From assembly GCA_045612205.1 (NCBI GenBank), contig JAZKYQ010000081.1, positions 206 to 64,205 of the forward strand: DNA of 64,000 bases. Reading direction: 5' to 3'. The DNA comes from Acutalibacteraceae bacterium. Its GTDB lineage: Bacteria > Bacillota > Clostridia > Oscillospirales > Acutalibacteraceae. Positions 8,058-52,664 of this stretch are shown here, piece after piece (position 1 is the first letter of the stretch; every line of letters starts with the position of its first letter). The notes below the pieces were generated by a model, which was not told where the DNA came from, searched no databases, and saw nothing but the letters and a program-made list of their open reading frames with translations. The position numbers and the translations under genes were made by a program.

Positions 8058-8070
8058 TTATAGCTTACCT

Positions 8071-8736: not shown

Positions 8737-8988
8737 AATAAATTACCTCACTTATGTATTTTTTACAAATATAATTTTTCATAATATTATACCAATCACC
8801 AATAAAAAAATCAATATAAACATCACCTTTTTAATTGATATAAGAAAAAATGTTAAAATATTTTATATATGTGTAAAAAAATATCGATTTATGTTTACTT
8901 TTGATAATAAAAGTAGTATTATAAGAATGGCTTTAGCTGTCAAGGACAGCATATATATGGATAAAAAGAGAAAAGGAAGTAGAGAATC

Positions 8989-10998: not shown

Positions 10999-11021
10999 AT
11001 TATGTGCAAAAATGAATATTT

Positions 11022-11116
11022 CCTTATTAAGAGTAGCGGAGGGAACAGGCCCTTAGAAGCTCGGCAACCTGCTTAAGCAAGGTGCTAAATCCTGCGGTAA
11101 GACCGGAAGATGAGGT
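11022..11116 (+). promoter_or_regulatory. SAM-I (S-box) riboswitch aptamer
   Basis: CTTATTAAGAGTAGCGGAGGGAACAGGCCCTTAGAAGCTCGGCAACC...GGTGCTAAATCCTGCGG...GAAGATGAGG matches the conserved S-box core (AGAG..GGAGGGA.UGGCCC, GGCAACC, GUGCUAAAUCC, closing P1 helix). It lies upstream of metK. Confidence 0.9.
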
Positions 11117-30775: not shown

Positions 30776-33610
30776 ATGAAGCTTTTAGTTCCTGTTTTTT
30801 TAAACTGCATTTTTGTAGTAATGTTTTATCTTCTTGATAAAAAAACAAAGTTCAAGAATCTGAACTTGATATCAAAGCAAATAATGATAGGCCTTGTTTT
30901 CGGCGGCTTGTCCGCCTTTGCATCAGGTTATGGTGTTGAGATTCTCGGTACTGTGGCAAATGTCCGTGATGCCGCACCTCTTTGCGCAGGCCTTATTTTC
31001 GGCGGCCCTGCAGGTGTTATTTCAGGTGTTATAGGCGGCTTGTACCGTTTCTTTTCCGTTTACTGGGGCGGTGGAGAATACACAAGAATTGCCTGTACCC
31101 TTTCAACAATGCTTGCCGGCTTTATTTCAGCGGCACTGAGAAAATATATGTTTGACAATAAAAAGCCCACCTGGAGCTACGGTGTATTTATCACCGTTGT
31201 GTGTGAGGTTCTTCATATGCTGATGATTTTCTTTACAAATATGAGCGATTCATCATATGCATTTGAATTTGTAAAGGGTGCCACAATTCCCATGATTATC
31301 GGCAACTCAGCAGCTGTAGGGATTTCTCTTATTGTTGTTTCACTGCTTAATCACGAGGAAAGAAAGCTCGGCAAAACAAATGAACGCATTTCACAGACCT
31401 TTCAGCGAAAGCTTCTGGTGCTTATTGTTGTAGCCTGTGTAGCTACCAGTACCTATACATATATCCTTCAGAACGGAATGGCTGAAATTGAAACAAAAGA
31501 GATTTTCACATCAGCAATGAACGACGTGATTACTGACGTAAGAGGTAAATCCGATGAGAAGCTGCTGGAAATTACAGAAAAAATACGTGCTGAATATGAA
31601 AAGAATAAAGATGTTTCTTTTGACAGCCTCAAGGAAAAATACAATGTTACGGAAATCAACGTTGTTGCTTCTGACGGCACTATTGTTGCTTCTGCCGATA
31701 AAGAAATTATCGGTAAATTCAATATGAACAGCACCGAACAGTCAAAGGAATTTATGGTGCTGACCGGTGAAAAAAGCGAGTATGTGCAGATGTACAGTCC
31801 CCAGGGCATAGACGGTGTAACAATGAGAAAATATGCAGGGGTCAGCCTTTCTGAAGGCGGATTTATTCAGGTCGGCTACGATGCTGTTCAATTCCATGAT
31901 ATGCTTAACGATTTTGTTGTTGACGTGACAAAAAACCGCCATGTAGGAAGCAATGGCTTTGTTGCTGTCTGTGATGAAAAATTAAATCTTGTAACCCATA
32001 CCGGCAGAAACGGAAAGCATATTTCGACTATAGGTATAACTCCCGTTGAGGAAATGCTTCAGGGAAAATCTGCAAGTCAGCTTTATAAGACAAATATTAT
32101 CAATGATGAAACAGATTTCAGTGAAGAATATATTTATGTTTTCACCTTTGTTGAGGGCTACTGCATAATTGCCGCAATGTCTTCAGCTGAAGCTATGCTG
32201 ATGCGTGATGCATCACTTTATACAAGCATATTTATGCTTGTGCTGATTTTCGCAGCTTTGTTTATTTTTATTTATTTCCTTATCAAAAAGGTAATCATCA
32301 ACAATCTGCAGAAAATCAACGGTACTCTTTCAGAAATTACAGGCGGCAACCTCAATGTGAAGGTCGATGTCCGTTCAAATGCAGAGTTTTCGTCTCTTTC
32401 TGATGACATCAACTCAACCGTATCAACTCTTAAAAGATACATCGGTGAGGCTGCAGCAAGAATTGACAAGGAGCTCGAATATGCAAAGCAGATTCAGCTT
32501 TCGGCTCTTCCCTCGGATTTCCCCGATACAGAAAAGTATTCCATATATGCACAGATGATAGCCGCTAAAGAGGTAGGCGGAGATTTCTATGATTTCTACT
32601 CTCTTGACGATAACACAGTACTTTTCCTTGCCGCTGACGTATCGGGTAAGGGAATTCCTGCCGCTATGTTTATGATGACGGCAAAAACAATTATCCGCGG
32701 TCTTGCTGAAAGAGGACTTTCCGTTGATGAAATTTTCACTCTTGCCAACGAAAAGCTTTGTGAAAATAACGAGTCGGGTATGTTTGTAACCGCTTGGATG
32801 GGTAAGCTTGACCTTCCTACAGGCAAGCTCAGCTTCGCAAATGCAGGACATAATCCTCCGATTATTGTTCATGCAAACGGTGAATGCGAATATCTCAAGA
32901 GCCGTACAGGCTTTGTGCTTGCCGGTATGGAGGGTATGAGATACCGTTCAAATGAAATGACACTCAATAAGGGCGACAGAATTTTCCTTTATACCGACGG
33001 TGTAACAGAAGCCACGGATGAAAATGAGGCTCTTTACGGTGAAGACAGACTTATGTCTTACATCGATAAAAACAAAGAACTGAAGGCTGAAGCATTGCTT
33101 TCGGGTCTTAAAGAGGATATCGACCTTTTTGCAGGTGATGCTCCTCAGTTTGATGATATTACAATGCTTATTTTTGACTACAAAAAGAAAGAAGGTGCTG
33201 CTATGAAAGAAAAAGTCTTTCCTGCCGAAAAAGGCGCTTTGCCCGAGGTAATGGATTTTACAGAGGAATGTCTCCAAAGCTTCGACTGCCCGATGAAAAG
33301 CCTGATGGCAATCTCCATTGCTGTGGAAGAGATCTTCGTCAATATTGCAAGCTATGCCTACGGTGAGGGCACAGGTGAAGCGGCTCTTTCCTTCTGCTTT
33401 GACGAAAGCGAAAGAATGATGACTCTTGTTGTAAGTGATGAAGGCGTACCCTTCAATCCTCTTCAGAGAGAAGAGCCTGATATCACTCTTTCAGCAGCAG
33501 AGAGAGACATCGGCGGTCTTGGTATTTTTATCACAAAGAAAACCATGGACACGGTTTCTTACAGATACGAAAACGGCAGAAACATTCTCACTATGACTAA
33601 AAAAATATAA
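30776..33610 (+). CDS. multidomain sensor: 5TMR-LYT-like membrane domain + extracytoplasmic (Cache-like) domain + HAMP + PP2C/SpoIIE phosphatase + RsbW/SpoIIAB-like HATPase kinase
   Basis: 944 aa. N-terminus NVRDAAPLCAGLIFGGPAGVISGVIGGLYRF (LytS-type 5TM). HAMP-like INNLQKINGTLSEITGGNLNVKVDV. PP2C motifs GGDFYDF, AADVSGKGIPAAMFMM, NAGHNPP, LYTDGVTEA, DDITML. The C-terminal ~135 aa (from internal ATG 33203) is a paralog of the stand-alone kinase at 47446..47853. Confidence 0.85.
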   Translation: MKLLVPVFLNCIFVVMFYLLDKKTKFKNLNLISKQIMIGLVFGGLSAFASGYGVEILGTVANVRDAAPLCAGLIFGGPAGVISGVIGGLYRFFSVYWGGGEYTRIACTLSTMLAGFISAALRKYMFDNKKPTWSYGVFITVVCEVLHMLMIFFTNMSDSSYAFEFVKGATIPMIIGNSAAVGISLIVVSLLNHEERKLGKTNERISQTFQRKLLVLIVVACVATSTYTYILQNGMAEIETKEIFTSAMNDVITDVRGKSDEKLLEITEKIRAEYEKNKDVSFDSLKEKYNVTEINVVASDGTIVASADKEIIGKFNMNSTEQSKEFMVLTGEKSEYVQMYSPQGIDGVTMRKYAGVSLSEGGFIQVGYDAVQFHDMLNDFVVDVTKNRHVGSNGFVAVCDEKLNLVTHTGRNGKHISTIGITPVEEMLQGKSASQLYKTNIINDETDFSEEYIYVFTFVEGYCIIAAMSSAEAMLMRDASLYTSIFMLVLIFAALFIFIYFLIKKVIINNLQKINGTLSEITGGNLNVKVDVRSNAEFSSLSDDINSTVSTLKRYIGEAAARIDKELEYAKQIQLSALPSDFPDTEKYSIYAQMIAAKEVGGDFYDFYSLDDNTVLFLAADVSGKGIPAAMFMMTAKTIIRGLAERGLSVDEIFTLANEKLCENNESGMFVTAWMGKLDLPTGKLSFANAGHNPPIIVHANGECEYLKSRTGFVLAGMEGMRYRSNEMTLNKGDRIFLYTDGVTEATDENEALYGEDRLMSYIDKNKELKAEALLSGLKEDIDLFAGDAPQFDDITMLIFDYKKKEGAAMKEKVFPAEKGALPEVMDFTEECLQSFDCPMKSLMAISIAVEEIFVNIASYAYGEGTGEAALSFCFDESERMMTLVVSDEGVPFNPLQREEPDITLSAAERDIGGLGIFITKKTMDTVSYRYENGRNILTMTKKI

Positions 33611-33622
33611 AGGAGACTTCTT

Positions 33623-33919
33623 ATGAATATCAATATCGAAAAAACAAACGGTGTAACTCTTATGGCTCTTGAAGGCAGACTTGACACAACAACAGCACCC
33701 GAGCTTGAAAAGGCTATCAATGGTGAAGGCGCAGCTCTTAAGAGCTTAGTGCTTGATTTCAAGGGCGTTGACTACATTTCAAGTGCAGGTCTTCGAGTGC
33801 TTCTTACAGCACAGAAAAAGATGAACGCTCAGGGACATATGGAGCTTGTGGGTGTAAGCGAAGCAGTTATGGACATATTCGAAATGACAGGCTTTGCAGA
33901 CATTCTGGAGATTAAATGA
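33623..33919 (+). CDS. STAS-domain anti-sigma-factor antagonist (SpoIIAA/RsbV-like)
   Basis: 98 aa. LEGRLDTTTAPELEKAI and DYISSAGLRVLL (conserved phosphorylatable Ser context); FEMTGF. Confidence 0.85.
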   Translation: MNINIEKTNGVTLMALEGRLDTTTAPELEKAINGEGAALKSLVLDFKGVDYISSAGLRVLLTAQKKMNAQGHMELVGVSEAVMDIFEMTGFADILEIK

Positions 33920-34485: not shown

Positions 34486-34486
34486 A

Positions 34487-35653: not shown

Positions 35654-35654
35654 T

Positions 35655-36221
35655 ATGAAAAATATACTTTTTATAAATGCTTGCTGCAGAGACAGCTCTC
35701 GCACAAATGAATTGGCACAGTGCTTGCTTGACAACCTGAACGGTCAGGTCAAAGCAGTAAATCTCTATGAGGAAAATCTGAAACCCATTGATGCAGAATT
35801 GCTTTTTAAAAGAGACAGTTTACTCAAAGAAGATAAAACAGATGATGAAATGTTTACTTTGGCAAAGCAGTTCTCTTTAGCTGATGCAATAGTTATTGCT
35901 GCACCTTATTGGGATCTTATGTTTCCCTCAATACTCAAGGTTTATCTTGAAAACATAACCGTATGCGGTGTAACCTTCCGTTACTCAGAAAAAGGAATTC
36001 CTCAGTCTCTTTGTAAAGCGGAAAATCTTTATTATGTCACAACATCAGGAGGCTTTATCGGTGAAAACAATTTCGGATTTGATTATGTAAAGGCTCTTGC
36101 TACGGGCTTTTTCGGAATCGGTAATGTAAGCTGCTTTTCAGCCGAAGGACTTGATATTTACGGCGCTGATGTCGGCACAATTATGCAAAAAGCAAAAGAA
36201 AATATTAAAAGAGGGATATGA
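35655..36221 (+). CDS. flavodoxin-fold NAD(P)H-dependent oxidoreductase (FMN reductase/azoreductase-like)
   Basis: Track ORF starts at 35625, but ATG 35655 lies 1 nt after the upstream stop. MKNILFINACCRDSSRT and ADAIVIAAPYWDLMFPSILKVYLENI resemble the Flavodoxin_2/FMN_red families. Confidence 0.6.
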   Translation: MKNILFINACCRDSSRTNELAQCLLDNLNGQVKAVNLYEENLKPIDAELLFKRDSLLKEDKTDDEMFTLAKQFSLADAIVIAAPYWDLMFPSILKVYLENITVCGVTFRYSEKGIPQSLCKAENLYYVTTSGGFIGENNFGFDYVKALATGFFGIGNVSCFSAEGLDIYGADVGTIMQKAKENIKRGI

Positions 36222-39303: not shown

Positions 39304-42300
39304 ATGAAAAAAATTTTATCAATCATTCTTGCAATCTTAATGATTGTAACAAGCGTACCCTTTGCCTTTGCGGCAGAAAGTGGCTTTGCAATCACACATC
39401 AGCCTACCGTTGATGAATTTTACGTTGAAACCAACGACGCAAATGCTACATATCAGTGGTACGAGGTAGAAAACAGTAGGGTAATTGACGATACTGTTGG
39501 AACTCCCTTTCCCGGTTCAACTACCTATTATGATGCTGATTCAGGAGCCTGGGTTCCGGCATATATTGAGCATGATTCTCTTTTTGTATGCATATTTTTT
39601 CAGATTCACCTGAAAAAAGGTGAAGCAGTAACCGTTAAACACTCGTCAGATATAATCACTTTTGGTGTTATTAATGAAGACTTAACAGATGAATATATGA
39701 AAGCTCCTGCTGTTGGTAGAACAGGAACATTTAGAGCTGAGGAGGATGCTGTTTATACTTTTACTTCAGTATCAGAAGAAATTGTGCAAGCAACGGCAAC
39801 TGTTTCAGTGCAAACAGCTGTTGAAGGCGAAACATCAGCACAGCTTAAAAATTATGAACCGGGCAAGAGATATGTTTGTCATGTAACCTTCGCTGACGGT
39901 GCTTCAGTATGCTCTGACGAGGTTTATACTCACGAGCATACAGGTACCGAGCTTACCTGTATGGGCTATAAATGTACCATTTGCGACGGATATTTCGGTG
40001 AAGAAACCGTTGACCACTCTTTTACCAGATACATAGTAACAACTGTACCTACCGACACAAAGGCAGGTGTTAAAAAAGCTGCATGTGACTACGGCTGTGG
40101 TACAGTAGACGAACAATCAATTCCTGCAGGGTCAACTGAAATTGATGCAGTTTATGATGAGGACGGAAACAGAACGGGCTTTAATACTATCTTAGCCGGG
40201 GGAAAAGTGTATTACGATATCTTTGACGGCGAGAGTACACTTGACGGTAAAAATCTCACCACCTTCTATAAGTCAGTTGTTGATAAAAAATACAACGGTA
40301 AGGATTCTATTCTGACAACATGGGCAAAGGTTGCCGAAAAAGTGTTCCGAATCGGCGGAAAGCAGTTCGGTTATAACTGGCAGTTCGACGACTTTGATAA
40401 ATGGTACAACACAGACTTGGAAAATACAGACGGTAACGATGAGGAAAATGGCGATATTGTTCTTCGGGATCAGTTCGCAAAGATGACACCATATTCATCA
40501 GGTGCTCCCGGTGAATACAATATGAGAGCTACAGGTCTTCAGTATTACGGCTCACTGAAGGATGTAGAAGAAAGTATGCTTGATGAGATTGCTTACGTTT
40601 GTGCTGAAAAAGAGGTTGTGGATGAATTCAAAGATGTAGTAATTGAGTTCTGCACACCTAACGGTGACGGACTTGAGCTTCTTCAGGACGATAAGGAACA
40701 GCATGTTCTTGCGCAGATCATTACCAATCAGTATGACGGTGAAATAAAACACAGATGGTTCTCATCCTTTGGTATCGCTTACTATGATTTCCAGCTTACA
40801 CCCATTATCGATGAAAACCTTCAGTATATTTCTGCAGCTGAAAATTATGAGTCTGTTAAGGATGCATTTGAAAATAATGCTCCCGGTGTTTACTATACAG
40901 ATAGCGGTGACGGTGAAACAACTATTACATACATTCAGAATCCGACTTCCGCTAACTCATCTGTCAGTGCATCCACCTCAAAATCTACAACCAACTCAGT
41001 ATCAAACAGCTTTACTGAATCTGATAGCCACTCATTTACCGAGTCAGCAGAAGTAAGTGGTGAGTGGACAGCGATTCCTAATGTATGGAAAATGAATTTT
41101 AAGATCGGATTTTCAGCTTCACAGGCTATATCAACCGCTTTTTCAGAAAGCACATCACTTTCTGAAACAATTTCAACATCCAGCTCCGTAAATGTAAATC
41201 TCCCTGCTTATACAGAGCTTGGTATTAAGCAGACTGTAGCCACCACTGAGCAGTCGGTTGAATATGATTGTCCTGTTGCTATCAGCTACAAGGTTGCTAT
41301 CTTCGGCATGAATGCTGAGTATTATCAGGACGGTATCACAGGTTCATGGTCCACTGCCGGATATGATCAGGGAAGCATCTGTGTAGGCTTTGGTACAGAT
41401 TCATCTGTAGGCGGTAAGAATGCAGGCGAAAACCTTTATAAGAGACTCGATGCATCAAACAAGGCTTTTGAGCTTTCCTACGGTAATGTTACCGGTATGT
41501 TCGAAGCACAGGAGGATGGCCGTGATCCTATCTCAATCAGTTATCTTGATTGGGAATCAGTAAATGGCAAGGAAGAGCTTCTTGATCTGGCAGAAGAAGC
41601 AATGAATTACATTCCTATGTCCTCCATGGGCGGTAAGATATCAACAAAAACTGAATCCATCAATACCGAAATCACTTCAATTTATCCCATGTATGACCTT
41701 AAGAGAGTCAAATTTGAAGGCAACGGTGCATATACCCTCGGTATAGGAGGCAAGCTTGACCTCAACACTGTAAATGTAATTGGTCTTAATGATTTTGATA
41801 TGCCATATTACGGCTTCCTTGGTCGTATGGGTGCTTGGCATCTTTGCGATAAAGACGGTAACGATATTCCTGACTTTGAAGCAGGAAAGGGTATTACTAT
41901 TGAGCCTACACCTACAACTCAGACGATTATTGCAAATGAACTCGGTGATTATTATCTGAGATTTGATATCGATGAGGAGTATTATACAAAGGTAGTTGAC
42001 AGAAAGACCTACATCACCAACGATGACCTTGAAATGACTGCTATCATGAAGGTTTCAGTTACAGATACAGGTAACAACCACACCTGCCGTCCCGGTGGCT
42101 GGATAACCTATATTCCTGCTAACTGCGTCGTTGAGGGTGAACGCTACAGAAACTGTCTGACCTGCTCCAAACGCTTGGCTACAGAGGTTATTCCTAAGGC
42201 AGACCACATTCCCGTTGATGTAGTTACTCCTGCAACATGCAATACAGACGGTAGCAAAACAACTACATGTCTTACTTGTAAGGCTATTATTTCAAACGAG

Positions 42301-43095
42301 GTAATCCCCGCAAAGGGTCACGGCAGTACATATTCAGTAACAACCGTAACTCCTACCTGTACACGAGACGGTGAAAAGGCACTTTATTGCTATGATTGTA
42401 ATAAGCTTGTCGGTTCAGAAACAATTGCAAGCACAGGACACGATAACGGTGTATGGAAGGTCGATTTCGAGTCAACACCTGAACACGACGGACAGATGAC
42501 AAAATACTGTTCAAGCTGTAACTATGCTCTTGAAAGCAAAACATTTGCATATCATACTCATTCCTTTAATTCATGGAGAATGAATAATGACGGCACTCAT
42601 TCAAGAAAGTGCTATTTGTGCGGTTATTCAGAGACAGACGATTGTGACTACAATGAAACAGTGGTTCCTGCAACTTGTACAGCCGACGGAACAACAACAT
42701 ATCAGTGTAAGGATTGCAAGCATAAGTATTCTGAAACATCTTCATATGCTCAGGGTCACGCATGGGGTGCCTGGACCGAAAGCGAAGGCGGAAATCATAC
42801 TGCAAGCTGTACTGCATGCGGTGTATCAGAAACTACTGTGCATATCTTTGTGGAATATATTCCCAACAACGATGCAACCAAGGACGCTGACGGTACAAAA
42901 ACAGCTACCTGTGTAGTTTGCTCTGCAACCGATACTGTTGTTGACGAAGGCTCAAAGCTCGTCGATTCTGCTGACGGTTGTGATCACATTTGTCATAATA
43001 CAGGCTTATCAGGCTTCTTCTGGAATATTATACGTATTTTCTGGAAGCTGTTCAGAATGAATCCCGTATGTGAATGCGGTGCAGCTCATTATTGA
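39304..43095 (+). CDS. giant secreted protein with a central aerolysin/ETX-MTX2-like Ser/Thr-rich hairpin segment and C-terminal Cys-rich modules
   Basis: 1263 aa with a signal peptide (ILAILMIVTSVPFAFA). The central segment is described in the findings. The C-terminal ~330 aa contain repeated C-x2-DG-x-K-x3-C-x2-C modules like those of 13289..17023. Hydrophobic Trp/Phe-rich tail GLSGFFWNIIRIFWKLFRM. Confidence 0.8.
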   Translation: MKKILSIILAILMIVTSVPFAFAAESGFAITHQPTVDEFYVETNDANATYQWYEVENSRVIDDTVGTPFPGSTTYYDADSGAWVPAYIEHDSLFVCIFFQIHLKKGEAVTVKHSSDIITFGVINEDLTDEYMKAPAVGRTGTFRAEEDAVYTFTSVSEEIVQATATVSVQTAVEGETSAQLKNYEPGKRYVCHVTFADGASVCSDEVYTHEHTGTELTCMGYKCTICDGYFGEETVDHSFTRYIVTTVPTDTKAGVKKAACDYGCGTVDEQSIPAGSTEIDAVYDEDGNRTGFNTILAGGKVYYDIFDGESTLDGKNLTTFYKSVVDKKYNGKDSILTTWAKVAEKVFRIGGKQFGYNWQFDDFDKWYNTDLENTDGNDEENGDIVLRDQFAKMTPYSSGAPGEYNMRATGLQYYGSLKDVEESMLDEIAYVCAEKEVVDEFKDVVIEFCTPNGDGLELLQDDKEQHVLAQIITNQYDGEIKHRWFSSFGIAYYDFQLTPIIDENLQYISAAENYESVKDAFENNAPGVYYTDSGDGETTITYIQNPTSANSSVSASTSKSTTNSVSNSFTESDSHSFTESAEVSGEWTAIPNVWKMNFKIGFSASQAISTAFSESTSLSETISTSSSVNVNLPAYTELGIKQTVATTEQSVEYDCPVAISYKVAIFGMNAEYYQDGITGSWSTAGYDQGSICVGFGTDSSVGGKNAGENLYKRLDASNKAFELSYGNVTGMFEAQEDGRDPISISYLDWESVNGKEELLDLAEEAMNYIPMSSMGGKISTKTESINTEITSIYPMYDLKRVKFEGNGAYTLGIGGKLDLNTVNVIGLNDFDMPYYGFLGRMGAWHLCDKDGNDIPDFEAGKGITIEPTPTTQTIIANELGDYYLRFDIDEEYYTKVVDRKTYITNDDLEMTAIMKVSVTDTGNNHTCRPGGWITYIPANCVVEGERYRNCLTCSKRLATEVIPKADHIPVDVVTPATCNTDGSKTTTCLTCKAIISNEVIPAKGHGSTYSVTTVTPTCTRDGEKALYCYDCNKLVGSETIASTGHDNGVWKVDFESTPEHDGQMTKYCSSCNYALESKTFAYHTHSFNSWRMNNDGTHSRKCYLCGYSETDDCDYNETVVPATCTADGTTTYQCKDCKHKYSETSSYAQGHAWGAWTESEGGNHTASCTACGVSETTVHIFVEYIPNNDATKDADGTKTATCVVCSATDTVVDEGSKLVDSADGCDHICHNTGLSGFFWNIIRIFWKLFRMNPVCECGAAHY

Positions 43096-44037: not shown

Positions 44038-44053
44038 GCACCTTCAGGTGTGA

Positions 44054-44086
44054 AAACAAAAAAGAGACAGCTTTCACTGCCTCTTT
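44054..44086 (-). terminator. terminator of the NRPS-like gene (minus strand)
   Basis: On the minus strand: AGAGGCAG-TGAAAG-CTGTCTCT (one G-U) followed by TTTTTTG; about 25 nt after the stop at 44112. Confidence 0.7.
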
Positions 44087-44111: not shown

Positions 44112-47105
44112 TTAATTCTTTTTAGCGAATATATTTTTTAACTTTTGTATAAGACCTTTTTTTTCGCAAATATCCTTCTTCAATTGTCCGAAAGAATAAT
44201 CATCAGCGTTGTCATTAACGATTGCAGCAACAACTCGCTTAAACAGATTTTGGAACTCGGACATAGTTTCCTTTTCATAGCGGCTGGCTGCGTAATCAAA
44301 CACATACTGCAAGCCGTTTTCACCGTCAAGTATCTGGATATCCAGAACCGTCTGGGAAGCAGCTTTGTTTTGACGGACTTCAATTTGCTCCACAGACAGT
44401 CCGCCAAAATCACCTACATCACGCAGATCTTTTTGATAAAGAACACCGGTGATGTCTCCATCTACAATCTGAGGATTGCTTTCAACGTAAGGATAGCAAC
44501 TGTGTTTGATTCCGTTCTGTACCTGCTGCTGAACCTCCGCAAAAATATCACGCAAGGTCATTTGGTCACGCAGACGAAGTGCAACAGGAAGATCTCGATA
44601 GAACAGGCCAACACTCGATGAAGTAACAAGATCATCTCGGCCGTTATAGATCCAAGATACCTGTACATCATCCGCATCAGTGCTGATTGCGATAGAGAGT
44701 AGTGTTGCTGCAATATAGAATTCATTGCGTGTCAGCATATATTTCTTTTCAGTCAAAGAAAGTTGAGTCGGAGCCATATCAGCCTCACATGAGATTTCAC
44801 CAAGCTCGTTTTTGCGTGTCACCTCATCAATTTTGGGGCATACAGTCCATTCAACATTTCCGTATTTTTCTTCGAAGTATTTGCAGCTTTCGTTATAGAA
44901 ATCTGTAAGCTTCATCTGTTCTCGATTATGCAGAACAAGATAGTAGTAATCAGTTTCTAACGGTGCGCCCATGTAAGCGTTAATTACGCTGTTGATAAAG
45001 ACTTTAAACGAAGTGCCGTCGAAGATAATATGATGCACATCGAAGAACAGATAAGCTGCATCATCGGTTTCGAACAAACGACATCTGTATAAAGGAGAAT
45101 TTATCATATTAAAAGGCTTTACAAGAGCATCTTTAACTTCCTCGAATTCATTGGTGCTGATTTTTTCAAGAGTTACCGTAACCGGCATCTGAGAATTATA
45201 CTGCTGTATCAGATCTCCGTCTTCGTTAAATTTAAGGACTGTGCATAAAGCGGGATGATTTTTGATTGCCATTTCGATTGACTTTGCCATTCTTTCAAGG
45301 TCAATCCCTTCCTTTTCAATGCGAAGCATTGTAAAAAGATTGTACATGGTAGAGTACGGTGTATAGAGCTGATAATCAAACATATATAACTGTTCAGTAG
45401 TCAGCTTATGTTTTTCAAGTTTAGCAGCTTCGTTCTGAGCATCATCCGAACCGGGATCACGATTTTGGATTTGCTCCACATAAAGCTGTGCAATTTTTGA
45501 AGGGGTACGTCCGCGGAAAATACAGTTTGCATCCAATCCAGCAAGACCGCTCTCAATTAACAGCTCCATGGATGAAAGTGAGTCGCCGCCCATTTCATAA
45601 AAGTCATCATTAATTCCGATTTGATCCATATTAAGAATTTTCTGCATTGCCTCGCAGAGAGCAGCCTCAATTTCATTAGTAGGTTCTGCGTAGGTTCTTT
45701 CGACATGCTTTACTTCCGGCTTTGGCAAAGCATTGCGATCCATTTTTCCGTTCGGCTTTACGGGAATGGTATCAATTTTTGTAAAGTAAGCCGGGATCAT
45801 ATAGTAGGGAAGGCGCTTTTGCAATTCCTCACGAAGACTGTCTGTGTCAACCTTGATATCATCAAGGTAGTATGCACAAATGAAACTGTGTTCGTCGCTG
45901 ACAAATCCTCTTACTGCACACCAATCGATTTTCAGGATAGAACGTATTGTAGCTTCGATTTCTGCAGGCTCGATACGGTTGCCGTTAATTTTGATCATAT
46001 CACTTTTTCTGCCACAGATTGCAATGTTTCCGTCCGGTAAAATTTTCACAAGGTCGGACGTATAATAAAATCCGTCTTTGAATACTTTTGCGGTTTCTTC
46101 TGGTAAATTAATATAGCCTCTGACATATGGGCTTTCAAAAACGAATTCGCCGATTTCGCCGTCAGGTACATCATTTCCGTCATCATCCACAACACGATAC
46201 TTCAAATCAAATTGAGGTTTACCGATAGGGCAGATATCGTATTCCTTGTCAATAACAAACATACTGGTAACAATTCCGCTTTCACTTTGGGCATACATAT
46301 TAAAGTTTGTTACGCCCTTCAAATAAAAGTTGTTAGCAGGCTCACTTCCTACAACCATCTTCTTGAGGAAGGGGCCGGTCTTTCCGGCAAACTTACGAGC
46401 ATAGGTTGGTGTAAGGAAGAATAAGGTAATACGCTTTAAGAGCAGATATTTAATGAGAGCGACAGGATTTTTTATCGTTGAGTAAGAAAGAATATGTGAG
46501 GTGCCGCAACCTCTGTACAAGCCATAAAACAAAACCATTATTGATGCTACAAAGTTAAGAGGAGCAGCAAGTGCAAATCGCTCTCCGGGAGCAAACATCT
46601 CTTCACCCTGATAGTTGGCTGACAGGATACAACGTTCCAAATTGCCGTATTCGTGCAGTACACCCTTAGGATTTCCTGTGGTTCCTGATGTGTACACAGC
46701 ATAGGCGGCATCGTGGGGATCGGTTTCTTCATAACCATCCAAAGGCTCGAAGCGGTTGATTTCTTCCCATACTTCGCTTGTTATGGATATTTTACAGTTG
46801 CAGTCCTTGTAAATATAATCAATTCGTTCGGGAGCAAGAGTATCTTCTACAATTACCAATGCTGCACCTGCGCGCCAAACACCGATCATAGCGATAATGG
46901 GTTGCACGCCACGTGGCAGCTTGACCATTACAAAATCCTCTTTACCTATATTTCGTGCTTTCAAATATGAATATACACGACCGCTTATCTCGCGGAGTTG
47001 TTCGTAGCTGATTCCTTTTGGAGTAGCTTCATCATATAACGGAACAAGATGCTTCGTTTCTGAATCGTTCATCAGTTCCCATAATCGTTCAATATATCGT
47101 TTCAT
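44112..47105 (-). CDS. single-module NRPS-like enzyme, domain order A-T-C
   Basis: 997 aa. A3 YTSGTTGNPKGV; A7/A8 YYTSDLV...GRKSDMIKINGNRIEPAEIE; A10 PNGKMDR; thiolation motif FYEMGGDSLSSMEL; condensation His motif HHIIFDGTS. Confidence 0.85.
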   Translation of the reverse strand: MKRYIERLWELMNDSETKHLVPLYDEATPKGISYEQLREISGRVYSYLKARNIGKEDFVMVKLPRGVQPIIAMIGVWRAGAALVIVEDTLAPERIDYIYKDCNCKISITSEVWEEINRFEPLDGYEETDPHDAAYAVYTSGTTGNPKGVLHEYGNLERCILSANYQGEEMFAPGERFALAAPLNFVASIMVLFYGLYRGCGTSHILSYSTIKNPVALIKYLLLKRITLFFLTPTYARKFAGKTGPFLKKMVVGSEPANNFYLKGVTNFNMYAQSESGIVTSMFVIDKEYDICPIGKPQFDLKYRVVDDDGNDVPDGEIGEFVFESPYVRGYINLPEETAKVFKDGFYYTSDLVKILPDGNIAICGRKSDMIKINGNRIEPAEIEATIRSILKIDWCAVRGFVSDEHSFICAYYLDDIKVDTDSLREELQKRLPYYMIPAYFTKIDTIPVKPNGKMDRNALPKPEVKHVERTYAEPTNEIEAALCEAMQKILNMDQIGINDDFYEMGGDSLSSMELLIESGLAGLDANCIFRGRTPSKIAQLYVEQIQNRDPGSDDAQNEAAKLEKHKLTTEQLYMFDYQLYTPYSTMYNLFTMLRIEKEGIDLERMAKSIEMAIKNHPALCTVLKFNEDGDLIQQYNSQMPVTVTLEKISTNEFEEVKDALVKPFNMINSPLYRCRLFETDDAAYLFFDVHHIIFDGTSFKVFINSVINAYMGAPLETDYYYLVLHNREQMKLTDFYNESCKYFEEKYGNVEWTVCPKIDEVTRKNELGEISCEADMAPTQLSLTEKKYMLTRNEFYIAATLLSIAISTDADDVQVSWIYNGRDDLVTSSSVGLFYRDLPVALRLRDQMTLRDIFAEVQQQVQNGIKHSCYPYVESNPQIVDGDITGVLYQKDLRDVGDFGGLSVEQIEVRQNKAASQTVLDIQILDGENGLQYVFDYAASRYEKETMSEFQNLFKRVVAAIVNDNADDYSFGQLKKDICEKKGLIQKLKNIFAKKN

Positions 47106-47134
47106 AGATTTAACTCCCGGTTGTTTAAATTCAA

Positions 47135-47431
47135 TTATTCTATTGTTAAAATTTCTGAAAAACCGGTCATTTCAAACACATCCATAACCTCTTCTCGAAC
47201 ATTTGTGAGTTTCATAGTGCCGACTTTCTGCATCTTTTTTTGTGCTCCGAGAAGGACACGTAGGCCTGCACTGGAAATATATTCAATTCCTTTGATGTTG
47301 AGAATAAGATTCTTCGTATCGGAGATATCTTCATTTAAGGTTTTGTCCAGCTCGGGTGATGTTGTTGTGTCGAGTCTTCCTGTAAGCTCGATTATGGTTT
47401 CTTCTGCGTTTCTTTTGATTTCAATAGTCAT
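47135..47431 (-). CDS. STAS-domain anti-sigma-factor antagonist (SpoIIAA/RsbV-like), paralog of 33623..33919
   Basis: 98 aa. LTGRLDTTTSPELDKTL, EYISSAGLRVLLGAQKKM, FEMTGFSEILTIE. By eye it is more than half identical to the 33623 protein. Confidence 0.85.
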   Translation of the reverse strand: MTIEIKRNAEETIIELTGRLDTTTSPELDKTLNEDISDTKNLILNIKGIEYISSAGLRVLLGAQKKMQKVGTMKLTNVREEVMDVFEMTGFSEILTIE

Positions 47432-47445
47432 ATCAGTTAACTCCT

Positions 47446-47853
47446 TTAAATTTTCTTGACCATAGTAAGTATATTTTCACCGTTTTCATAGGTATAATTT
47501 ATTTTGTCCATTGTTTTCTTGACAATGAAAATGCCAAGTCCGCCGATCCTTCGCTCCTGTGCTGACAGAGCAATGTCCGGATCAGGATTCTTTAAGGGAT
47601 CAAAGGGTATACCCTTATCAGTTATACGGATGATGATGCTGTGACTTTCTTCGTCGAAGCAAATTCCAAGTGTCACATTTCCCTCACTGTCGCCATAGGC
47701 ATAGCGAGCGATATTGACAAATATTTCTTCCGCAGCGACACAAATTGCTGTTTGAATTTTAGCAGGGCATCCGTAAAGTTCAAGCATATATTCCAGAAAG
47801 CCGAGAACATCTGATAGCACATCAATTTTTGCAGGAAAAGTTTGCTTCTTCAT
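47446..47853 (-). CDS. RsbW/SpoIIAB-like anti-sigma serine kinase (HATPase_c_2)
   Basis: 135 aa. AAEEIFVNIARYAYG (N box), ITDKGIPFDPL, GGLGIFIVKKTMD. Collinear with the C-terminal 135 aa of the 944-aa sensor. Confidence 0.85.
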   Translation of the reverse strand: MKKQTFPAKIDVLSDVLGFLEYMLELYGCPAKIQTAICVAAEEIFVNIARYAYGDSEGNVTLGICFDEESHSIIIRITDKGIPFDPLKNPDPDIALSAQERRIGGLGIFIVKKTMDKINYTYENGENILTMVKKI

Positions 47854-47931
47854 ATATGTGCCTCTCCTTCGTTTTCTGTATTGGTAACTTTAAGTATGAA
47901 CCCAAATAAAAATAGCTTGTCACAAGGATAT

Positions 47932-48819
47932 TTAACCTTCTTCCACGATGACATTGACTACGCAATTATCAAACTGATCGTTAAATTCGTCTTGTATTTG
48001 TTTTTTGAATATTAAGATTTCTTCAAAACTTGTGTTCTTTTCAAAGGAAAGATGCAAATCTATTCTTGTGACGTCTCCGCTTTTACGGGAATTTATTGAA
48101 TGAAACTGTGAATAGCTGCTATAATACTGAGTCAATATATTAAGTATCTTCATCTGCTGTTCTTCGGGAAGGGTTTTGTCAGTTAATTCATTTAACGACT
48201 GCCTTGCACGCTTGAAGCAACCAAATATTAAATATATCGCAATAAAAATGCTGATTACAGGAGAAATATATCCTCCGATTGGATTGTCTCGCAGCAACCA
48301 CATTGCAAGAAGTGAAACCAAGGTGACGCTATCAAACAATAGTGCTGCAAGTGCAGCAGCATAATTGGTTTCGGAAATTGCGCTACGGTGAATCTTTATG
48401 ATTTTACGCTGTTTTACGAAAAATGCGGTGTCGAAGCTGACGTTTATGACTTTCAATCCTACTACGGCAATCACCAAATCGCTTGGCTGTTCAGGATAGA
48501 TAATGGAATAGACTGAAAGAGCAAGTGTTATAATCAAGCCTAAAAATACAATGCCGTCACAAACAAGAGATGCAATCGCTTCGATTTTGCCGACACCGTA
48601 ATTATATTCAAATCGCAAATCCTTTGACAGCTTTTTAGAAAGAATCGTAACCATAGCAGTACGAAGCATGTTTCCGAATGAGTCTAGCAAATCGACGAAA
48701 ACAAGAATTGTTTTTGAGAGAATTGCAGATACCAAAACTGCTACGAAAGACGGCGTTTCCGCTAAAAATTGAGCAAAAGAGAGGTTTTGCTGTTTTTTGT
48801 AACCGAATTTATCACTCAT
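47932..48819 (-). CDS. cation diffusion facilitator (CDF)-like transporter
   Basis: Track ORF starts at 48840, but ATG 48819 follows GGAGAGG by 7 nt. Six TM helices, FEYNYGVGKIEAI (TM3 region) and a C-terminal cytoplasmic alpha/beta domain (FHSINSRKSGDVTRIDLHLSF). The usual TM2/TM5 His/Asp metal-site residues look partly substituted (VDLLDS, LLFDS). Confidence 0.65.
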   Translation of the reverse strand: MSDKFGYKKQQNLSFAQFLAETPSFVAVLVSAILSKTILVFVDLLDSFGNMLRTAMVTILSKKLSKDLRFEYNYGVGKIEAIASLVCDGIVFLGLIITLALSVYSIIYPEQPSDLVIAVVGLKVINVSFDTAFFVKQRKIIKIHRSAISETNYAAALAALLFDSVTLVSLLAMWLLRDNPIGGYISPVISIFIAIYLIFGCFKRARQSLNELTDKTLPEEQQMKILNILTQYYSSYSQFHSINSRKSGDVTRIDLHLSFEKNTSFEEILIFKKQIQDEFNDQFDNCVVNVIVEEG

Positions 48820-49016
48820 GTTTTTGCCTCTCCTATACATTGAAAAATTTCGGAAATTCTGAGTAAAATATACTCATTACTAAGAGTATCAAGCTCAGAC
48901 AATATCACTTATAAGAAATGTTGTTAATCGCAATCAGAGCTTAAATGAGATGAACGTCATAGCAAGTACCATATAATGCGAATCAAGCAATATGCAGAGC
49001 ATAATTTACTATAAAA

Positions 49017-49045
49017 ATTTTATCATAGAGCAATGGTAATGTCAA
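49017..49045 (-). promoter_or_regulatory. candidate sigma-A promoter of the CDF/kinase/STAS/NRPS operon
   Basis: On the minus strand: TTGACA (49045..49040), 17 nt, TAAAAT (49022..49017). This implies a leader of roughly 190 nt. Confidence 0.45.
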
Positions 49046-49581: not shown

Positions 49582-49794
49582 TTATGCAATTACAGCACCA
49601 CGGGATTTAAGGTAAATATCTATATCGTTGTTGATATAATTATGTCCCGTACTGTGTAAAACATCATAGAATTCATAAATATAATCGAATACACCATATT
49701 CCTTGAAAAGTTTGATTACTGCCTTGCCGCTTAAATTACGGTGTGCCTTATAACTTTCAATACAGAATATCAAAAAGTTCGTTTCTTTACTCAT
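49582..49794 (-). CDS. DUF3791-like small protein
   Basis: 70 aa. NFLIFCIESYKAHRNLSGKAVIKLFKEYGVFDYIYEFYDVLHSTG resembles my memory of DUF3791. Confidence 0.6.
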   Translation of the reverse strand: MSKETNFLIFCIESYKAHRNLSGKAVIKLFKEYGVFDYIYEFYDVLHSTGHNYINNDIDIYLKSRGAVIA

Positions 49795-49806
49795 AGTATC
49801 ATCTCC

Positions 49807-50043
49807 TTATATATCGGGGAAAACTATAGTGCCTGTTTCTTCCTCTTGCTTAAGTAAAGCATAAAGCATCTCAGAACTGTAGTGCCATACTTTGGTTTCC
49901 TCATCTTCAAGTAATTCATAAAGTTTAGAGGAATACAGTCTTAATATTGCATCATCATGAGATATATTTTCTTTATCTGCAATCAGTTTTATCAGATCAG
50001 CACTGATGTAGGGGATAAGTGCCTCAAACTGCTCTTTAGACAT
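49807..50043 (-). CDS. DUF3791-like small protein (second copy)
   Basis: Track ORF starts at 50130, but ATG 50043 follows AAGGAGGA by 8 nt. MSKEQFEALIPYISADLIKLIADKENISHDDAILRLYSSKLYELLEDEETKVWHYS. Confidence 0.55.
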   Translation of the reverse strand: MSKEQFEALIPYISADLIKLIADKENISHDDAILRLYSSKLYELLEDEETKVWHYSSEMLYALLKQEEETGTIVFPDI

Positions 50044-50056
50044 AACGTTATCCTCC

Positions 50057-50542
50057 TTATCTGATTTCTTTGGACTCAATAAACTTAAGGTAAGAAAGGG
50101 CTTTTTCACTGTGGAATGCCCATTGGTCATGCAGCACCTCTGTTTTTAATCTGGCTACAGTATATTCCGCATCAATTGCACCTGCTTCAAAAAGTCGGAT
50201 AGTCTGATAAATATTATCGTCTGCTACAGGACCGATATGCATATCAGAAGCAGAATCAATTGAATCTCCACGGCGATTAGCGACAACGAACTGAAGCCAC
50301 TTCTCATCAGCACCGTCAAAGGTTTCTATTGATATAGACTTTTCTGCTTCAGGTAAATTGAATTCATAGACAGAAACATAGCCAACGTCGGCGTTACTTC
50401 TACGCTTTTTAATTCTTGCCCATCTTTCTGCTTGTTCATATGAGGTGGTCGTATAAAAACCTATACCGAAATCCAGAAATACAGAACCTTTTCTGATTTC
50501 AGGATAATCTACTAAATCTGTACTTCCGTGATACAATATCAT
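50057..50542 (-). CDS. DUF3990-like protein (possible ADP-ribosyltransferase-fold)
   Basis: 161 aa. MILYHGSTDLVDYPEI...DFGIGFYTTTSYEQAERWA resembles my memory of the DUF3990 N-terminus. The order YHGS ... GFYTT ... E is reminiscent of an H-Y-E ART triad. Confidence 0.6.
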   Translation of the reverse strand: MILYHGSTDLVDYPEIRKGSVFLDFGIGFYTTTSYEQAERWARIKKRRSNADVGYVSVYEFNLPEAEKSISIETFDGADEKWLQFVVANRRGDSIDSASDMHIGPVADDNIYQTIRLFEAGAIDAEYTVARLKTEVLHDQWAFHSEKALSYLKFIESKEIR

Positions 50543-50785
50543 AATGACACCTCCATATCTGTCTCTGTTATTATATTATCATACTGTGCTTAAAAATTCA
50601 ACTGTATATGCAATAATGACTATTTTATATTGTTTAGAAACATCTCTCTGTTTAAGTGCCGTTGATTTTCAGTTTATTTACTTATCTCATCTTTCATATT
50701 TATATTGACAAGGCAAAGACGCTCCGGAGCAACTTATAAGTCCTTATTAATATAGATACAATAAAACGAAGTAAAGGAGATAAAA

Positions 50786-51343
50786 ATGAAAGATATAAAT
50801 CATGTGGTGATTACGGGGCGGATTGTGAATTTGTATGTAATCAATCACAATCCGGCACGAGTCATAGTAACAATTTATGATGATGGAAATAATCCTAAAA
50901 TTTTTGCGGCTAATAAGACTGCGGAATATATTATCAAAAACTTAAATGTTGGAGATTATGTCACTGCAGAATGTAACCTGCAAAGTTCAACCAAAAACAA
51001 AATCGGTAAAACGGTTACCGTTTTTGTTGATACAATAAAAAAGCATTGCTCACGTGTTGCCTCGGAAAATAATTTTTTCCTTGCAGGAGATATTGTGTCC
51101 GTGCGAACTAACACAAAGTTGAACATTTCTACAATGATAATAGCCACAACGGTAAATGGAAGGAGATCAACTGTAGAAGTAACCTTTTACGACCCTGATC
51201 ACAGGATGTTCGGAATAATCTCTGATAATCCTGATATTTCCATCGGAGGCAGAATACAAACTGTTTCTTATACTGTAAAAAATAAGAAGGTATATAGGCA
51301 GATTTATGTTGCTGATTTTCCAAGAAACAGCTGTAACGAATAA
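50786..51343 (+). CDS. hypothetical protein (weak OB-fold/ssDNA-binding-like N-terminus, internally duplicated)
   Basis: 185 aa with RBS AAAGGAG. NHVVITGRIVNLYV and FFLAGDIVSVRT begin two similar halves, reminiscent of SSB-type OB folds. The functional call is weak. Confidence 0.45.
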   Translation: MKDINHVVITGRIVNLYVINHNPARVIVTIYDDGNNPKIFAANKTAEYIIKNLNVGDYVTAECNLQSSTKNKIGKTVTVFVDTIKKHCSRVASENNFFLAGDIVSVRTNTKLNISTMIIATTVNGRRSTVEVTFYDPDHRMFGIISDNPDISIGGRIQTVSYTVKNKKVYRQIYVADFPRNSCNE

Positions 51344-51372
51344 GGCATAATAAAAAATCTTTCTATTTATGG

Positions 51373-51405
51373 AACACAGAGTTGGACAGCTCTGTGTTTC
51401 GTTTT
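51373..51405 (+). terminator. terminator after 50786..51343
   Basis: AACACAGAG / CTCTGTGTT perfect stem, loop TTGGACAG, then TCGTTTT. Confidence 0.7.
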
Positions 51406-51525
51406 ATAAATTTTTCGATTATCTTCATATTCTATCTTACATACTTATATTAAGTGGTCAAACTCACGATTGGAGAAACTGGTCATAATCTAACTCTCAT
51501 TTTTCTTTTGTTATTAGTTATTCAG

Positions 51526-51566
51526 AAAAAGGGCTCTCACTGCATTGTCAGTTGAGAGCTCTTTTT
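51526..51566. terminator. strong orphan hairpin/terminator (no annotated gene ends here)
   Basis: AAAAAGGGCTCTCACTG / CAGTTGAGAGCTCTTTTT with one bulge; A-run before and T-run after, so it could act in either direction. Confidence 0.55.
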
Positions 51567-51616
51567 CGTTTATCCTATAGGTAGAAATTACATATTTATT
51601 TATAGAGGGATGGATT

Positions 51617-51683
51617 GTTAAGGTGAAACCTTAACGCTCTCGGCAGAGCCCGTTCCAGAAGAGAAACTTCTGGTATAACGGGG
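51617..51683 (+). promoter_or_regulatory. candidate oriT (inverted repeats upstream of the MobV gene)
   Basis: Hairpin GTTAAGGT-GAA-ACCTTAAC (51617..51635), plus nested inverted repeat CCCGTT-CCAGAAG-AGAAA-CTTCTGG-TAT-AACGGG (51649..51682). About 120 nt upstream of mob. Confidence 0.35.
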
Positions 51684-51803
51684 TAGGCCAGATTTGCAGG
51701 CAAAATAAAATTGATTTTTTGTCTGAAGCCCTGTCTGAAATTACTTCTCAGTATCATGTGAATTACTACAAATTTGGCCGTCTGAAAAGGAAGGATGGTT
51801 TAT

Positions 51804-52565
51804 ATGGCTCATTTAAACAAATGGACAAAAACGCAGTGTCCGCAAGTGTTGTATCATGATTATCATTTTATCGGCAGGAACTCAAAGAATAAGAATATTG
51901 ATCCGTTAAGAAGAAAACTGAATTATAATTTAGCACCCCACGATATGTGGTCGTATGATTATTTAAAGCAAAGATTGTCAGAAGTATATTGTATGAACAG
52001 AAAAGATGTAAATGTTATGTGCTCTTGGATTTTTACGGTTCCTGCTGACGTTAAACAGGAAGATGTAGATTTATGTCTTAAGTCTGCTTACGACTTCTTA
52101 GAGGGCAAATATGGCAAAGAAAACGTGGTTTCCGCCTTTGTTCATAAAGATGAAAGCAAAAACGGAAGGCCTCATATTCATTTCAACTTTATACCTGTTG
52201 TATGGGACAAAAAGAAAAACAGATATAAAGTGTCTGCTAAAGAACTTATAACAAGACAGGAACTTTCTGTTTTTCACGGAGAACTGCAGAAAGCCCTTGA
52301 AACTTCGTTAGGTTATTCTTGTTCGGTTATCAGTGGAGAATTGTCAGACAGACCCAATATGTCAATTGAGCACTTCATGAAGTTCAAGGAAGCAGCCAAG
52401 GATAAAGATACGTTGGCTCGTCTGTCTGCTTATGAAAACACATTCGGTTTTCCTATAGATATGACAGCAGATAATCTGTCTATGTACTTAACATCATACA
52501 GAAATGCACTTAAATCACTAGAGAAATCATTTGAGAAAGTTATACATATGGAACTTGAAAAATAA
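51804..52565 (+). CDS. MobV-family (Mob_Pre) relaxase
   Basis: VHKDESKNGRPHIHFNFIPV matches the HxDE...PHxH motif III of MobV relaxases. Track ORF starts at 51795, but ATG 51804 has better spacing from GGAAGGA. Confidence 0.7.
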   Translation: MAHLNKWTKTQCPQVLYHDYHFIGRNSKNKNIDPLRRKLNYNLAPHDMWSYDYLKQRLSEVYCMNRKDVNVMCSWIFTVPADVKQEDVDLCLKSAYDFLEGKYGKENVVSAFVHKDESKNGRPHIHFNFIPVVWDKKKNRYKVSAKELITRQELSVFHGELQKALETSLGYSCSVISGELSDRPNMSIEHFMKFKEAAKDKDTLARLSAYENTFGFPIDMTADNLSMYLTSYRNALKSLEKSFEKVIHMELEK

Positions 52566-52664
52566 CTACATTTAACTTTAAACAAATAAGTGGCAGAATC
52601 TTGATATTGAGGTTCTGCTTTCTTATATCCAGCCTGGCGGCTGTAACGCACATCACACTATACT

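Follow-up and report, generated by a model that had tools for sequence, protein, structure and literature searches.

A partner-switching-type kinase and STAS protein linked to a one-module nonribosomal synthetase and an exporter-like protein in ruminant-gut Clostridia

Why should the gene of a nonribosomal peptide synthetase (NRPS) enzyme stand in one operon with an RsbW-type kinase and a STAS protein, and with no sigma factor beside them? The question is raised by positions 44,112 to 49,016 of a 64-kb stretch of contig JAZKYQ010000081.1 from an Acutalibacteraceae bacterium, the whole of which is called the window here. Four minus-strand genes encode, in the order of transcription, a CDF-like membrane protein, the kinase, the STAS protein (STAS2) and an adenylation-thiolation-condensation (A-T-C) NRPS enzyme of 997 amino acids (aa). 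We propose that the operon encodes a unit for acylating and exporting a small molecule, controlled by a dedicated serine phospho-switch, a reading to which we assign a probability of roughly 55%. It draws on the gene content, the integrity of the catalytic motifs, the paralogy between two switch modules of the window and the conserved linkage of the STAS and NRPS genes.

The operon and the domains of its enzyme are made up as follows.
49017..49045, minus strand: promoter-like site TTGACA-17-TAAAAT with a TG extension (11/12 for an extended -10 promoter, a match to the consensus only)
47932..48819, minus strand: CDF-like membrane protein, 295 aa (Pfam Cation_efflux and ZT_dimer, 1e-15)
47446..47853, minus strand: RsbW/SpoIIAB-type serine kinase, 135 aa (Pfam HATPase_c_2, 1.5e-23; NCBIfam RsbW, 7.6e-9)
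47135..47431, minus strand: STAS2, a single-domain STAS protein, 98 aa (Pfam STAS, 6.5e-18; NCBIfam anti-sigma antagonist superfamily)
44112-47105, minus strand: A-T-C NRPS enzyme, 997 aa (Pfam AMP-binding, 6.5e-49, with PP-binding and Condensation, 7.8e-41)
45711..47018, minus strand: adenylation (A) domain of the enzyme, residues ~30-465, pocket code VAMFVGMIVK (Pfam and alignments)
45456..45683, minus strand: thiolation (T, carrier) domain, GGDSL with Ser509 (Pfam PP-binding)
44205..45410, minus strand: terminal condensation (C) domain, HHIIFDG with His691/692, Asp696 and Gly697 (Pfam Condensation, 7.8e-41)
44115..44183, minus strand: cationic amphipathic C-terminal tail KKGLIQKLKNIFAKKN (by charge and hydrophobic moment)
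44051..44086, minus strand: intrinsic terminator with an 11-bp stem, a loop of 4 and a T-run (by sequence)

All four open reading frames (ORFs) lie where a preliminary description of this DNA had placed them and in the order it gave, and Pfam supports every call. The terminator that it had noted after the NRPS gene is present with its 11-bp stem at 44086-44061 and, together with the promoter-like site, brackets all four genes. This site implies a 5' untranslated region of ~190 nt, in which an Rfam scan of the window found no leader RNA. The A-T-C gene begins 29 nt past the STAS2 stop, with a GGAG ribosome-binding site. Neither the ORFs nor their Pfam content include a sigma factor, thioesterase (TE) or reductase (R) gene in the operon, as had been stated.

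Is this neighbourhood peculiar to the window? Relatives of the A-T-C enzyme were found in ~429 species-level genomes, almost all of them metagenome-assembled genomes of ruminant-gut Clostridia, with Ruminococcus sp. JE7B6 and Lachnospiraceae AC2029 as cultured carriers. The family comprises more than 100 clusters of ~997 aa, and its full-length members measure 986-1035 aa. Eighty loci were fetched from these genomes, 75 of which were testable for an upstream STAS gene (related loci are labelled L001-L091, and proteins from the STAS search P0155 and P0244). Of the 75 loci from the genome scan, 44 have a STAS gene immediately upstream of the NRPS gene and on its strand, phmmer and family-built hidden Markov models (HMMs) agreeing on the count; for the large clade, one metagenome locus included, the figure is 45/74. 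The two genes are separated by a median of 10 nt, with a 4-nt overlap in six pairs. As the 1.1 Mb of flanking DNA hold just 9 other STAS ORFs, this linkage is far beyond chance. Among the 137 neighbour ORFs of 16 STAS-linked loci, HATPase_c_2 (n = 10) and SpoIIE (n = 8) are the commonest Pfam families.

The A-T-C family splits into two clades. In the large one, whose members are ~53% identical to the window enzyme, a tail-anchored type-B carboxylesterase (COesterase) is encoded downstream of the NRPS gene (60/80 loci); the COesterase, MATE and ABC partners typical of this clade were searched for in the window and none was found. In the window's own clade of 13 loci, a CDF-like gene lies beside the NRPS gene in 12, a STAS gene is in the cluster in seven and a sensor gene in four. 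The STAS gene is often directly beside the CDF gene there, the two being adjacent in L003, L004, L084, L087 and L088. A stand-alone kinase gene between CDF and STAS genes is found in the window and in none of the other 90 loci. The expectation of a conserved kinase-STAS-NRPS linkage is thus borne out for the upstream STAS gene and for HATPase_c_2 and SpoIIE neighbours, but not for a stand-alone kinase beside the NRPS. As a separate observation within this clade, a Y_phosphatase3 gene follows the NRPS gene in L084 (13160-14293) and L087 (12262-13293), and Acyl_transf_3, HAD and EamA genes precede it, an accessory set that differs from that of the esterase-linked clade.

Do the kinase and STAS2 have what a partner switch needs? 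The stand-alone kinase has intact N, G1 and G2 boxes (E..N, DKGIPF and GGLG in a motif alignment). Its assignment rests on Pfam, NCBIfam and motif inspection, since phmmer of the kinase against the Protein Data Bank (PDB) retrieved no SpoIIAB or RsbW structures. Ser54 of STAS2 aligns with the phospho-acceptor Ser58 of SpoIIAA (1auz, 1th8) and with Ser56 of RsbV (6m36), and the motif Y[IV]SSAGLR with the phospho-acceptor serine is invariant in the 44 NRPS-adjacent STAS orthologues. A STAS protein with its serine, a HATPase_c_2 kinase with intact boxes and a PP2C phosphatase are thus all present in the window, the last being adjacent in relatives; that these three are cognate is what we infer. 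The PP2C domain, at residues ~560-806, belongs to a sensor encoded in a separate operon, ~11 kb from the NRPS operon, which consists of the following genes.
30776..33610, plus strand: sensor, 944 aa, with 5TM-LYT, HAMP, PP2C (SpoIIE) and HATPase_c_2 kinase domains (domain search)
33623..33919, plus strand: STAS1, a paralogue of STAS2 (domain search and identity)
33916-34485, plus strand: HD_4 hydrolase (domain search)
34463-35653, plus strand: STAS-APH kinase fusion (domain search)
35625-36221, plus strand: Flavodoxin_2 protein (domain search)

With the family-built HMMs, a single PP2C domain was detected in the window, beside two RsbW-like kinase domains and three STAS domains; this agrees with the earlier statement that the 944-aa sensor holds the sole PP2C domain. 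Over its full length, the stand-alone kinase shares 55% identity with residues 810-944 of the sensor, the sensor's C-terminal kinase domain, and STAS2 is 56% identical to STAS1. Judged by this paralogy, the second kinase-STAS pair is a duplicate of part of the sensor module, without a phosphatase of its own. The HD_4, STAS-APH and Flavodoxin_2 proteins are likely to be further outputs of the same switch network. The outputs of this operon (30776-36221) look enzymatic and not transcriptional, HD_4 resembling a small alarmone hydrolase. L089 encodes a RelA_SpoT synthetase and a GGDEF protein along with HD_4, a grouping suggestive of a connection with alarmone or cyclic di-GMP signalling.

What connects two operons that lie so far apart in the window? 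In several relatives they are joined. L003 holds in one operon a sensor gene, an APH-like fragment, CDF, STAS and NRPS genes and a Flavodoxin_2 gene, which directly follows the NRPS gene and whose product is 54% identical to that of the window. In L001 the sensor gene lies upstream of CDF-NRPS, and in L089 the NRPS gene is followed by GGDEF, RelA_SpoT, HD_4, STAS and sensor genes. STAS-APH genes stand beside the NRPS gene in L039 and L049, and L082 has both HD_4 and STAS-APH. L025, from a cultured Ruminococcus, is a complete single operon, and in L090 the genes for MatE::HATPase_c_2, STAS, NRPS, COesterase, kinase and PP2C form one operon with overlapping gene ends. L090 was reached from a distant member of the exporter-fusion family described below, independently of the NRPS; L091, a second locus reached from that family, has no NRPS gene. 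These arrangements support the view that a system which forms a single operon in relatives is divided over two operons in the window. The cross-wiring to the operon at 29.8-36.2 kb, which the preliminary description had proposed, is accordingly backed on comparative-genomic grounds by L003, L001 and L089 together with the 55-56% paralogy.

In its parts, the module resembles SpoIIAA/SpoIIAB/SpoIIE and RsbV/RsbW/RsbU of Bacillus, which likewise combine a single-domain STAS protein carrying a phospho-serine, a HATPase_c_2 kinase and a PP2C/SpoIIE phosphatase. Unlike them, it is not linked to a sigma factor, it has its phosphatase united with a kinase domain in a membrane sensor, and its genes lie within a biosynthesis and export operon; in relatives, moreover, a MATE exporter carries a fused kinase-like domain. 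The multidomain protein Rv1364c of M. tuberculosis is a PP2C-kinase(-STAS) fusion and, like the window's protein, unites a sensor, a PP2C and an RsbW-like kinase domain in a single chain; the window's sensor, by contrast, is membrane-bound via 5TM-LYT and its STAS partners are separate proteins.

This resemblance to the Bacillus modules raises the possibility that the switch is a classical one, the kinase being an anti-sigma factor and STAS2 its antagonist, with the sigma factor encoded elsewhere and the NRPS and CDF-like genes being co-transcribed members or mere neighbours of the regulon. NCBIfam does place the kinase and STAS2 in RsbW and anti-sigma-antagonist families, the stand-alone kinase retains all its catalytic boxes, and just 64 kb of the genome is visible. 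Yet a scan of ten other ORFs, a part of those in the window, revealed no sigma factor, no sigma family recurs among the 137 neighbour ORFs, and none was seen in the eleven loci with Pfam tables. Other switch partners are at the level of candidates, as set out below. The kinase domain is mostly fused to a membrane PP2C sensor or a MATE exporter, an unlikely way to sequester a sigma factor, and the STAS gene is translationally coupled to the NRPS gene across ~50% protein divergence. We therefore consider a classical sigma switch improbable.

On what, then, would the switch act? In nine loci (L011, L015, L016, L024, L025 at 7853-9619, L047, L049, L068 and L069) a MATE exporter carries a C-terminal HATPase_c_2 domain, and L090 (7001-8770) provides a tenth case. 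The fusion gene lies directly upstream of STAS-NRPS in six of the nine loci; the order MATE::HATPase_c_2, STAS, NRPS equals the window's order of transporter, kinase, STAS and NRPS. The fused domain keeps the N box and has lost the G1 and G2 ATP boxes (DxGxPF to DNCKRF, GGLG to KNIG), while the stand-alone kinases, that of the window included, keep all three. Because of this loss, the MATE-fused domain looks like a pseudokinase that serves as a docking site for the STAS protein. The fusion family comprises at least 120 clusters of ~589 aa in Ruminococcus, annotated as hypothetical, as 'ATP-binding protein' or as efflux pump, and exporters with an anti-sigma-like domain have, to our knowledge, not been described. 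Going by these fusions, the exporter is at least as strongly indicated as the NRPS as partner of the STAS protein, and the NRPS stays a candidate because of its tight coupling to the STAS gene. The putative partner would thus be either the exporter's pseudokinase domain or the NRPS. For the idea that the NRPS is under a partner-switching gate, this means that the dedicated, non-sigma switch is upheld by the conserved linkage, while the NRPS as its direct target is not, the MATE fusions indicating the exporter.

The exporter connection can also be read without any switch: the STAS protein would be a constitutive structural component of the CDF-like or MATE transporter, needed for its assembly or activity, as known from the STAS domain of SulP/SLC26 carriers and from MlaB of the Mla system. 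CDF and STAS genes are adjacent in the window's clade, MATE::HATPase_c_2 and STAS genes are adjacent in others, and STAS2 has weak NCBIfam matches to MlaB and DauA. Fusions in the same STAS subfamily point the same way in part. The top 150 STAS relatives include LPG_synthase_TM::STAS proteins, besides kinase::STAS and PP2C-kinase-STAS fusions such as P0155 (kinase-HAMP-PP2C-STASx3). We nevertheless give a purely structural role little likelihood, since the phospho-acceptor serine and its motif are invariant, many STAS-NRPS pairs lack an adjacent transporter, and the commonest neighbours are active kinases and PP2C phosphatases, which are sensible only if phosphorylation matters. A side observation from the same search concerns P0244, a close relative of STAS2 that is fused to an LPG_synthase_TM (MprF-type) membrane domain, a further case of the switch domain in a membrane protein.

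The window's own candidate exporter is the CDF-like protein. Its longest ORF starts at 48840, and the Shine-Dalgarno sequence AGGAGAGG lies 8 nt upstream of the ATG at 48819. Given this spacing, and since the N-termini of orthologues begin at the matching methionine, the gene almost certainly starts at 48819, as had been assumed before. The protein has the six transmembrane segments (TM) and the cytoplasmic dimerisation domain of the CDF fold and aligns to YiiP/FieF. Compared with E. coli and Shewanella YiiP, however, only D45 of the site-A ligands is kept; D49 is replaced by Ser, H153 by Ala and D157 by Leu. The losses are common to the CDF-like orthologues, in TM5 in 6/6 and in TM2 in the five that cover TM2. 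With three of four ligands gone, canonical metal pumping is unlikely; the protein is probably not a metal pump and may carry something other than a divalent cation. The label "CDF-like transporter" thus holds for the fold, by Pfam and by the YiiP alignment, and fails for the metal site. In the operon, the gene occupies the slot that MATE or EamA exporters occupy in relatives.

Is the enzyme at the end of the operon functional, and what might it make? An inactive A domain or a missing T-domain serine was looked for by alignment, and neither was seen. The A3 motif TSGTTGxPKG (TSGTTGNPKG in the window), the A10 residue Lys454, Ser509 and HH691/692xxxDG697 are invariant in 80/80 aligned homologues, and the same core residues are kept in 15 homologues at 53-100% identity. 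The motifs quoted in the preliminary description are therefore present and conserved.

Asp235 of A domains binds the alpha-amino group of the substrate. Its position is taken in the window by Val186, as the FDxS of both LgrA A domains aligns to N-F-V-A-S, and it is Val in 78 and Ile in two of the 80 homologues. The window's pocket code is VAMFVGMIVK, that of most family members VAIFFGIFAK, and both are hydrophobic throughout. Of these positions, 235, 236, 239, 322, 330, 331 and 517 (the last being Lys454) are anchored on motifs of the LgrA alignment, and 278, 299 and 301 were assigned by motif register from what we take to be the GrsA-PheA numbering. The replaced Asp235 and the hydrophobic pocket make a hydrophobic carboxylic acid without an alpha-amino group the probable substrate, and the amino acid considered in the preliminary description an unlikely one. 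An aliphatic residue at the Asp235 position is typical of keto-acid-activating A domains (PMC10949194), and a hydrophobic pocket without Asp235 is also compatible with a fatty acid donor.

The protein stops after the C domain, and no acceptor carrier, TE or R domain lies downstream in it or in the operon. Release of the acyl group by the terminal C domain onto a free nucleophile is then the natural reading, and the earlier picture of a stand-alone A-T-C module is upheld as regards the intact module, with C-domain release as its predicted consequence. VibH-type C domains are free-standing, accept an aryl donor from a carrier in trans and release it onto soluble amines. The window's C domain is like VibH in having no acceptor carrier, and unlike it in being part of a larger protein. 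In a PDB sequence search with E up to 10 it showed only distant similarity to solved condensation and epimerization domains (best E 4e-18), and neither VibH nor OaaC was among the matches.

OaaC belongs to the clostridial fatty acid amide (FAA) pathway OaaA/OaaACP/OaaC, in which the A, acyl carrier and C proteins are free-standing and the acceptor is a free amine (PMC13310621, citing Chang et al.). On the features compared here, this pathway is the closest functional analogue of the predicted chemistry: adenylation, carrier and condensation functions, a donor that is not an amino acid, a free small-molecule acceptor, no TE and gut Clostridia as hosts are common to both. The A-T-C enzyme nonetheless lacks its defining features. 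It is a single fused polypeptide, and its canonical HHxxxDG is kept in 80/80 homologues, whereas the FAA C-domain motif is (D/H)HxxxD(S/A), with Gly in just 17% of FAA C domains (PMC13310621). FAA clusters are not reported with STAS, kinase or PP2C genes.

The enzyme ends in a Lys/Arg-rich tail with the family consensus DKKNFFxxVxGIFRRKK. The last 25 aa have a family median net charge of +6 and a median hydrophobic moment of 0.54, which exceeds the 95th percentile (0.50); the tail of the window enzyme is weaker (0.39). These values hint at a helix that docks to the membrane or to a partner.

Such a tail, together with the sensor's 5TM-LYT membrane domain, would also suit an enzyme that acylates a membrane lipid or an envelope polymer in a Dlt-like logic, the envelope-sensing switch then tuning surface chemistry. 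The recurrent neighbours COesterase (60/80), Acyl_transf_3, GDSL lipase, HAD and glycerophosphodiester phosphodiesterase fit this alternative, and DltA is among the relatives of the A domain. On the other hand, no MBOAT/DltB- or DltD-like gene is conserved, a C domain is foreign to Dlt-type systems, and the pocket lacks the amino-group anchor that D-Ala-like substrates require. The typical partners of the family, MATE, EamA and ABC exporters, suit small molecules. For these reasons we think an envelope target unlikely and favour a small, exported product.

The phospho-switched acylation and export unit would then work as follows. The A domain would activate a hydrophobic carboxylic acid without an alpha-amino group and load it on Ser509, and the terminal C domain, through its HHxxxDG motif, would then acylate a free amine or alcohol with it. 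The CDF-like protein, in the slot of the relatives' MATE/EamA transporters, would be the export or membrane partner. STAS2 would be the switch element, its Ser54 being phosphorylated by the stand-alone kinase and by the sensor's kinase domain, and dephosphorylated by the sensor's PP2C domain upon a membrane or envelope signal sensed by 5TM-LYT/HAMP. One phospho-state of STAS2 would bind the exporter, the NRPS or both, and so gate export or synthesis post-translationally and without a sigma factor. The phosphorylation, the binding partner, the direction of control, the substrate and the product are predicted here from comparisons of genes and proteins.

Several observations weigh against this proposal. 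An exhaustive search of 1.84 billion representatives yielded no STAS::NRPS fusion among the top 150 STAS relatives. No NRPS surface separates STAS-linked from STAS-free homologues either; the differences are conservative and dispersed, and the two groups intermingle phylogenetically. Direct action of the STAS protein on the NRPS is thus left unsupported. The window's kinase is catalytically intact, unlike a pseudokinase, and no kinase-like domain is part of the CDF-like protein, so that the analogy with the MATE fusions is indirect for the window. A STAS gene is absent from ~35% of homologous loci and from 6/13 of the window's clade, and the STAS-NRPS link is therefore frequent, not obligatory. 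Finally, the view is that of a 64-kb window, and the rest of the genome may contain further PP2C genes, or sigma genes.

Has anything comparable been described? Full-text literature searches found no papers that join partner switching or STAS domains with NRPS enzymes, in keeping with the earlier remark that no described case of an NRPS under such control was known to its author; a survey of rumen biosynthetic gene clusters contains no discussion of the A-T-C family. STAS proteins with a non-sigma output are known, as in SypA/SypE of Vibrio fischeri (PMC8256260), and a partner-switching-like module, HenR/All4160 of Anabaena, has been proposed in a preprint to control an exopolysaccharide biosynthetic enzyme directly (bioRxiv 10.64898/2026.04.08.717354). 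Both resemble the proposed switch in that the phospho-state of the STAS protein is itself the output. They differ in that their output is polysaccharide or biofilm, while that of the window is predicted from its genes to be an NRPS-type enzyme with an exporter.

The output of NRPS enzymes is normally regarded as transcriptionally controlled; a phospho-switch that acts at the protein level and is coupled to a membrane sensor would add a layer of control that differs from this and works faster. Partner switching, in turn, would gain a new type of output, a machine of enzyme and exporter instead of a sigma factor. A wider version of the idea is that of a rumen-wide class of operons in which a full partner-switching module serves a one-module NRPS and an exporter, the STAS protein docking to the exporter's pseudokinase or to the NRPS; we hold this more tentatively, at somewhat less than even odds. 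If this wider version is true, it would be the first partner switch that controls a nonribosomal synthetase system, with the first exporter to have an anti-sigma-like receiver domain. With carriers among hundreds of ruminant-gut species, the family may yield an acylated product that is plentiful in the rumen, as a metabolite or as a signal. Complete operons in cultured strains such as Ruminococcus sp. JE7B6, where the operon lies at ~910-919 kb of NZ_CP162391, make the idea directly testable, and the exporter-pseudokinase fusions name a concrete candidate binding partner.

Some further features of the window lie outside the two operons. Beyond the promoter-like site, the stretch 49582-53945 encodes a DUF3990 protein with small companion ORFs, a Mob_Pre plasmid recombination enzyme (51795-52565) and an HTH-containing protein of 426 aa (52665-53945). 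Its GC content is lower (0.35-0.36), and for this reason it is probably a mobile-element remnant adjoining the operon. A SAM (S-adenosylmethionine) riboswitch (RF00162, 76.8 bits) is located at 11021-11116 on the plus strand, upstream of an ORF at 11274-12458, and is unrelated to the operon. Very large secreted or surface proteins with repeats (1808, 1263 and 2159 aa) and an RHS-repeat protein are encoded at 24174-29600, 39304-43095, 54889-61368 and 62357-63340; very large repeat-bearing surface proteins are usual in gut Clostridia.

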